Positions 57,780 to 58,691 of a DNA stretch of 64,000 nt are shown in pieces (position 1 is the first letter of the stretch; every line of letters starts with the position of its first letter). The notes under the pieces were generated by a model that saw only the letters and a program-made list of their open reading frames with translations, did not search any database and was not told the origin of the DNA. Location of the stretch: assembly GCF_030013595.1 (NCBI RefSeq), contig NZ_CP122768.1. The stretch is one strand, 5' to 3'. The stretch comes from Escherichia coli. Its GTDB lineage: Bacteria > Pseudomonadota > Gammaproteobacteria > Enterobacterales > Enterobacteriaceae. A program made the position numbers and the translations under genes.

Positions 57780-58691
57780 ATGGATGACTGTGGTGCGGTT
57801 TTGCATAATATTGAAACTAAATGGCTTTATGATTTTCTGACCCTGGAAAAATGCCGCAATTTTTCCCAGGCGGCAGTTAGTCGCAACGTCTCGCAACCGG
57901 CATTCAGCCGCCGCATCCGTGCACTGGAACAGGCGATTGGCGTTGAATTGTTTAACCGCCAGGTGACGCCGCTGCAACTCTCGGAACAAGGGAAAATCTT
58001 TCATTCGCAGATCCGCCATCTGTTGCAACAGTTAGAAAGCAACCTGGCAGAGCTGCGTGGCGGCAGCGATTACGCGCAACGTAAAATCAAGATAGCCGCT
58101 GCACACTCTCTTTCCCTCGGTCTGTTACCGTCCATTATCAGCCAGATGCCGCCGCTCTTTACCTAGGCGATTGAAGCCATTGATGTTGATGAAGCGGTCG
58201 ATAAACTGCGTGAAGGGCAAAGTGACTGTATTTTTTCCTTTCACGACGAAGATTTGCTGGAAGCGCCGTTTGACCACATTCGCTTATTTGAATCTCAATT
58301 GTTCCCCGTCTGCGCCAGTGACGAACACGGAGAAGCACTGTTTACCCTCGCGCAGCCACACTTTCCGTTACTGAATTACAGCCGCAACTCCTACATGGGG
58401 CGATTGATTAATCGCACCCTGACGCGCCACAGCGAGTTAAGTTTCAGCACCTTTTTTGTCTCTTCGATGAGCGAGCTATTAAAGCAGGTTGCCCTCGACG
58501 GCTGTGGGATTGCCTGGCTGCCGGAATACGCCATCCAACAAGAAATTCGCAGCGGGCAGCTCGTTGTACTGAATCGGGAAGAACTGGTGATCCCGATTCA
58601 GGCCTACGCATACAGGATGAACACCCGTATGAATCCCGTTGCCGAACGCTTCTGGCGTGAACTGCGCGAACTGGAGATTGTGCTTAGCTGA
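57780..58691 (+). pseudogene. hypT: LysR-type regulator HypT (YjiE) with an in-frame TAG at 58164..58166
   Basis: ORFs 57780..58166 and 58254..58691 are in the same frame; sequence reads ...MPPLFT*AIEAIDVDEAV... where the K-12 protein has W, from memory. Confidence 0.8.

Follow-up and report, generated by a model that had tools for sequence, protein, structure and literature searches.

A premature amber codon at Trp129 of hypT in an Escherichia coli strain

The hypT locus

We analyzed a 64,000-nucleotide stretch of Escherichia coli DNA (contig NZ_CP122768.1 of assembly GCF_030013595.1), called the window below, in which the gene hypT (also named yjiE or qseD) is interrupted by a single premature stop codon. 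The gene encodes HypT, a LysR-type transcriptional regulator (LTTR) that responds to hypochlorous acid (HOCl). Its parts in the window are as follows.

57780..58691, plus strand: hypT reading frame, 303 codons plus stop; codon 129 is an internal stop, making the gene a pseudogene
57780..58166, plus strand: translatable open reading frame of 128 amino acids plus TAG, which encodes HTH_1 (residues 14-72), then linker helix and hinge, and ~29 residues from the start of the regulatory domain
58164..58166, plus strand: premature amber codon TAG in place of TGG for Trp129; the mutated base is 58165 (G to A)
58167..58691, plus strand: untranslated remnant encoding regulatory-domain residues 130-303, including Met206 and Met230; otherwise undamaged and identical to the intact allele of isolate HCP5S3_I2

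The frame opens with ATG at 57780 and ends at the usual stop codon (58689-58691). The TAG at codon 129 is the sole in-frame stop within it, so that the 128-amino-acid product terminates in ...SQMPPLFT while the frame beyond the TAG continues as AIEAIDVDEAV. When Trp129 is restored, the protein scores 693.5 bits against the NCBIfam HypT equivalog NF007488 and covers the entire profile (1-303 of 303). The actual 128-residue product scores 286 bits over profile positions 1-128, which is under the curated cutoff of 301 bits. The gene order iadA-hypT-iraD, with hypT and iraD convergent, is the same in the window, in HCP5S3_I2, in O157:H7 and in K-12. The score of the restored protein and this synteny establish that the locus is hypT; the score of the actual product marks it as an incomplete HypT.

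The nearest complete genome is that of the pig-faeces isolate HCP5S3_I2 (L001, NZ_CM149870.1), which encodes an intact HypT of 303 amino acids. Across all 912 nucleotides of hypT the two sequences differ solely at 58165, where HCP5S3_I2 has G and the window has A. This comparison and the reading of the open reading frames bear out a first-pass annotation of the window, which had described a hypT frame continuous apart from the TAG and attributed the stop to one G to A transition. The same annotation had given K-12 a tryptophan codon here, and codon 129 of MG1655 is indeed TGG, in the context CTCTTTACCTGGGCAATT. Besides codon 129, the window gene differs from that of K-12 by 29 nucleotides and four amino acids; K-12-type HypT alleles have Ile7 and the window allele has Val7. 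The window haplotype is uncommon, being matched at 99% identity or more in only 38 of ~5,390 complete genomes.

Over the ~54 kb in which the window and HCP5S3_I2 overlap there are 21 substitutions, and HCP5S3_I2 has two insertion sequences (IS) missing from the window, one of the IS3 family and one IS1. The two strains are thus close relatives but not clonal. The hypT change is one of ~20 recent differences between them. Our preferred interpretation, to which we assign a probability of roughly 85%, is that hypT of the window is a recent natural loss-of-function allele produced by one G:C to A:T transition at 58165.

The allele in independent assemblies

A rival explanation is an error of sequencing or assembly, in which an artefactual A at 58165 hides a TGG that the strain truly carries. 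Assemblies can hold single-base errors, and the exact 77-mer of the window is absent from the complete RefSeq genomes, which had suggested that the allele was private to one genome. That suggestion was overturned when the exact 128-residue product was found in 253 index blocks of a larger public collection. Moreover, two independent assemblies, GCA_002968075.1 (L005) and GCA_012651895.1 (L006), match the window exactly for 6,387 nucleotides, TAG included, which makes a sequencing artefact unlikely. Up to 14 more contigs with the same gene neighborhood are collapsed under the places of these two, and the substitution is atypical of homopolymer-type errors. We therefore give the error explanation almost no weight.

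Stops at codon 129 in other genomes

Using seed-killing 30-mers over codon 129, we counted stop codons at this position in 5,426 complete genomes. Only four have one (two TAG and two TGA), in strains 1506, GZ2408P, 300709 and WS4437A-1. A stop at this position is accordingly not the usual state of the species, a possibility that the first-pass annotation had named as contrary to its proposal. In all four genomes the Prokaryotic Genome Annotation Pipeline (PGAP) labels the gene a pseudogene with an 'internal stop'. These genes resemble that of the window in the affected codon, the 128-residue product and the pseudogene label. However, their haplotypes are 30-33 nucleotides away from the window haplotype and TGA is the stop codon in two, from which we conclude that they arose independently of the window allele.

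In the larger public collection the 128-residue product is represented by 136 contigs as well as by the 253 index blocks; these and all further counts of HypT prefixes are lower bounds, since K-12-type alleles with Ile7 are not counted. Among the loci that were read, stops at codon 129 occur in at least nine combinations of haplotype and stop codon, six with TAG and three with TGA. The backgrounds are listed here by locus, with loci that share a background joined by slashes.

TAG at codon 129: window/L005/L006; L007; L009; L013; L015; L016
TGA at codon 129: L008/L011; L010/L017/L018; L012

The genes of L007 (TAG) and L008 (TGA) are identical apart from the stop codon itself. In L013 (GCA_016671825.1, ~3500-3546), a TAG lineage, a ~360-bp deletion has removed the 3' half of hypT and brought iraD nearer, which is consistent with continued decay of a gene that was dead before.

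To place this recurrence in context, we tested other products that a one-step nonsense mutation of HypT can yield. All 17 of those tested, W129 included, exist publicly. The number of contigs for each is given below, by the codon at which the stop arises.

Q51, 44; Q61, 59; Q66, 33; Q70, 48; Q77, 19; Q83, 35
Q84, 66; E91, 37; Y98, 25; Q100, 27; L116, 13; Q122, 2
W129, 136; E132, 18; K142, 21; Q147, 27; Q173, 13

Prefixes of 110, 127 and 130 amino acids, which no single mutation can produce, are absent from the public collection. Matched controls from iadA, counted as prefixes of its majority allele, are also present, with 58 index blocks for a stop at W131 and 78 for one at Q67; the corresponding figures for hypT are 99 for Q147 and 253 for W129. 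Since all 17 HypT products and the iadA controls are found, recurrence at codon 129 is by itself unremarkable and provides no evidence of selection. Nonsense alleles of dispensable genes are a general background in a deeply sampled species, mostly reflecting background decay, and sampling is now so deep that almost every possible nonsense allele of such a gene exists somewhere.

The W129 stop does stand out in abundance. Its 136 contigs compare with a median of 27 for the tested HypT products, it is ~3-5 fold commoner than its peers, and 26 of its index blocks have contigs longer than 50 kb versus 0-1 for the controls. The long-contig pattern fits a small number of clonal lineages, that of the window included, in which the allele has become established.

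An earlier set of controls, built from the window alleles of dnaC, uxuR and iadA, was dropped as confounded after nine of its ten prefixes proved absent. The window iadA has the minority residue Val25 (the majority allele has Ile25) and the protein accession of uxuR varies between lineages, which invalidates the comparison; exact-prefix controls must use alleles that are common to the lineages compared. In addition, a match to an 89-residue DnaC prefix (P0082), labelled 'partial' and coming in part from non-E. coli assemblies, was not counted as a nonsense allele. This N-terminal fragment of DnaC is deposited as 'partial' under Xanthomonas citri and other species, and these deposits are probably E. 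coli contamination or cut contigs.

Origin of the mutation at a Dcm site

The mutated base lies in one of the six Dcm methylation sites within hypT.

58162..58166, strand not assigned: former Dcm site CCTGG, now CCTAG; G58165 lay opposite the internal C, the methylated one, of CCAGG on the minus strand

The ancestral CCTGG is present at this position in both HCP5S3_I2 and K-12, and the change at 58165 corresponds to C to T at the internal C of the minus strand. As the cytosine opposite the mutated G is the one that Dcm methylates in CCWGG, deamination of 5-methylcytosine is a plausible and, though unproven, the most likely chemical origin of the W129 stop. By this route deamination opposite G58165 would give a T:G mismatch, and a mismatch missed by very-short-patch (VSP) repair (for its context, PMC2715241) would convert TGG to TAG. 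The amber hotspots of lacI at Dcm sites arise by the same mechanism (Coulondre et al. 1978, as reviewed in PMC12606429). They too create TAG by a G:C to A:T change of the internal methylated C in CCWGG. However, the methylated C belongs to the coding strand in lacI (CAG to TAG) and to the template strand in hypT (TGG to TAG), and hotspot behavior is not demonstrated for the hypT site, with six TAG versus three TGA events.

Support for deamination from the counts is suggestive and statistically weak. TAG outnumbers TGA, which results from change of the neighboring unmethylated G, by six to three among haplotype-distinct events, but the two are level in complete genomes (two versus two). The Q61 stop, which is also of the Dcm type, is not enriched, with 59 contigs compared with 2-66 for other glutamine codons, and neither dcm nor vsr is within the 64-kb window. 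Ordinary G:C to A:T transitions contribute too, as is shown by the TGA alleles, in which the adjacent G without a methylated partner is changed.

Suggestive support also comes from a similar site in iadA, where codon 131 (window 56933..56935) likewise lies in CCTGG. The TGG to TAG change of this codon accounts for the 58 index blocks given above, which are from Logan assemblies, and TAG was the stop codon in both of the two examples read (L021 and L022).

Consequences for the HypT protein

The structure of HypT from Salmonella consists of a DNA-binding domain (DBD) with linker helix (residues 1-93), a hinge (94-99) and a regulatory domain (RD; 100-302), and the functional tetramer requires DBD-DBD as well as RD-RD interfaces (PMC6397515). 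Met206 in RD-II is the direct sensor of HOCl and is described as a 'hallmark' of HypT orthologs, and a single substitution of Met123, Met206 or Met230 abolishes activity (PMC6397515). The restored protein of the window conforms to this architecture. Pfam domains HTH_1 and LysR_substrate match residues 14-72 (E = 1e-15) and 99-297, and the best match in the PDB is HypT of Salmonella Typhimurium (StHypT, 5ydw; E = 3e-166). Intact HypT of K-12 and Salmonella Typhimurium (PDB 5YDW) shares with the window gene its locus, its synteny and, once Trp129 is restored, the full-length NF007488 match. It differs in possessing residues 129-303, which are absent from the window product.

The 128-residue product retains the DBD, the linker helix, the hinge, and ~29 residues of the RD including Met123. 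It is recorded in the public collection with PF00126, and the N-terminal winged helix-turn-helix (HTH) of the LysR type is present. Neither the RD fold nor the RD-RD interface remains, and Met206 (whose codon, at 58395, is in the untranslated remnant) and Met230 are both lost. The first-pass annotation was therefore right to place the end of the protein after residue 128; its description of a truncation behind the DNA-binding and linker region can be refined, as part of the RD persists and ~174 of its residues are lost.

Translational restart does not appear to rescue the missing part. The first canonical in-frame start after the stop is a TTG at codon 159 (58254), it has no clear Shine-Dalgarno sequence, and a product initiated there would miss the start of RD-I. 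Loss of the RD interface, Met206 and Met230 together with the lack of a credible restart leads us to expect that HOCl-responsive regulation is lost, and we infer loss of function and reduced tolerance of hypochlorite for the allele. Translation would end after residue 128, leaving the winged-helix DBD and the dimerizing linker helix. The RD-RD interface of the tetramer and the HOCl sensors Met206 and Met230 would be missing. Control of the HypT regulon by HOCl, through which methionine and cysteine biosynthesis is raised and iron uptake lowered, would fail, and the strain would be predicted to tolerate hypochlorite less well. Two considerations speak against a simple null phenotype: a stable DBD fragment might still bind DNA in dimeric form, which leaves a null unproven, and other HOCl-response systems, encoded outside the window, could mask the effect.

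Full-length HypT might in principle still be made if the amber codon were read through, either naturally or by a suppressor tRNA encoded elsewhere. This has no direct support; although the frame is otherwise intact, a very recent mutation would leave it so too. Amber suppressors are rare in natural isolates. The 64-kb window contains no tRNA gene and hence no local suppressor, and in other lineages codon 129 is TGA, which is beyond rescue by an amber suppressor. Readthrough consequently seems very improbable to us.

Other truncated hypT alleles

A different natural truncation of hypT is known as short QseD (sQseD) in O157:H7, a lineage of enterohaemorrhagic E. coli (EHEC). In strain TW14359 (L002) Tyr17 is changed from TAT to TAA at the equivalent of window position 57830, and PGAP annotates a 284-residue HypT that starts 57 nucleotides downstream, keeping the regulatory domain and losing part of the HTH. 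We ruled out that the window carries this allele, since its codon 17 is TAT (Tyr) and the O157:H7 haplotype differs at 28 other positions. Both are natural nonsense mutations of hypT, that of O157:H7 being fixed in its lineage. Their architectures are inverse, however, with the HTH lost in part and the regulatory domain kept in short QseD, and the HTH kept and the regulatory domain lost in the window product. A restart of the O157:H7 type is not seen in the window either, as no start preceded by a Shine-Dalgarno sequence follows the stop at codon 129. According to Habdas et al. (2010, J Bacteriol 192:3699), the short QseD allele of EHEC reportedly represses ler. A review likewise states that truncated QseD of EHEC retains regulatory activity on ler, repressing it (PMC5053249).

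This precedent in the same gene raises the possibility that the window allele encodes a functional truncated isoform kept by selection, either the 128-residue DBD fragment or a restarted C-terminal fragment. DBD-linker fragments of LTTRs can dimerize and bind DNA, as in the BenM DBD-DNA crystal complex cited in PMC6397515, and the 284-residue product annotated from a downstream start in O157:H7 is a further parallel. The W129 stop is also the commonest of the 17 tested and the one found on long contigs. Several points nevertheless lead us to doubt a functional isoform. The product lacks the very domain that short QseD keeps, and no in-frame start with a Shine-Dalgarno sequence follows the stop. 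Nonsense alleles exist for each of the one-step hypT codons tested and for iadA, as expected under neutral or slightly deleterious decay, and the codon-129 stop is found in only 4 of 5,426 complete genomes. The deletion of the hypT 3' half in the L013 lineage is likewise consistent with a dead gene.

Truncated hypT alleles also occur in Shigella flexneri, one with a stop at Glu91 (90 amino acids, P0076; 37 contigs) and a 128-residue variant (P0036; 7 contigs). Codon-129 stops on at least nine backgrounds, the Tyr17 stop of O157:H7 and the Glu91 stop of Shigella flexneri could together be taken to mean that adaptive inactivation or remodelling has hit hypT repeatedly in E. coli and Shigella. 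Were this so, the loss of HOCl-responsive control, or the retention of a constitutive DNA-binding stub, would pay in some host niches. The matched controls do not favor such an adaptive explanation, and we think it unlikely on both counts.

A literature search found no paper on pseudogenes of hypT in E. coli; in a study of Salmonella Cerro a yjiE deletion served only as a control strain. Public assemblies already contain the allele itself, and stops at codon 129 are already treated as pseudogenes in RefSeq. The interpretation in the first-pass annotation is supported; the repeated hits on this codon in other lineages, the Dcm site and the separate O157:H7 truncation are additions to it. The W129-stop hypT is thus an ordinary, rare and recurrent pseudogene of a dispensable stress regulator, mildly interesting for its recurrence at one codon and for its position on a Dcm methylation site. 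In annotation the locus is best labelled a pseudogene with an internal stop, instead of a pair of short LysR-like genes. As natural hypT mutants, the strain and its close relatives may be more sensitive to hypochlorite, whether as HOCl from neutrophils or in chlorine disinfection. This could matter if the lineage has food-safety or veterinary interest, its nearest complete relative having come from pig faeces.

Flanking sequence and the remainder of the window

One promoter-like element precedes hypT.

57720..57747, plus strand: promoter-like site TTGTCA-16-TAGAAT upstream of hypT, a consensus match only

It was the single such match near the gene, where shuffled sequences gave an expectation of 1.7, and is therefore not above chance. 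A perfect 12-bp inverted repeat, TGTCAGCCGCCC ... GGGCGGCTGACA, spans 57721..57770 between the iadA stop codon and the hypT start. Read by eye, it has a loop of ~26 nucleotides and no T-run, and the promoter-like site overlaps its left arm and loop. A terminator scan around hypT detected no intrinsic terminator. The 3' ends of hypT and the convergent iraD overlap by 8 bp (58684..58691). Past 58166 a stretch of ~525 nucleotides of hypT mRNA would be free of ribosomes, and we speculate that transcription into iraD might change as a result.

Elsewhere in the window, three further places can be compared with HCP5S3_I2. The IS3-family element of that isolate, ~1.33 kb long, adjoins yjiS (L014 35529-36860) and is missing at window position ~36272-36277. 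An intact open reading frame of 656 amino acids (44669..46639, plus strand) has a C-terminal pentapeptide-repeat region; its counterpart in HCP5S3_I2 is split by IS1 and annotated as 'type III effector' and 'pentapeptide repeat-containing protein'. Finally, hsdS, the type I restriction specificity gene downstream of hsdM, apparently consists of two overlapping open reading frames of 226 and 184 amino acids (21392..22072 and 21997..22551, plus strand), and in HCP5S3_I2 it is annotated as two partial pseudogenes.
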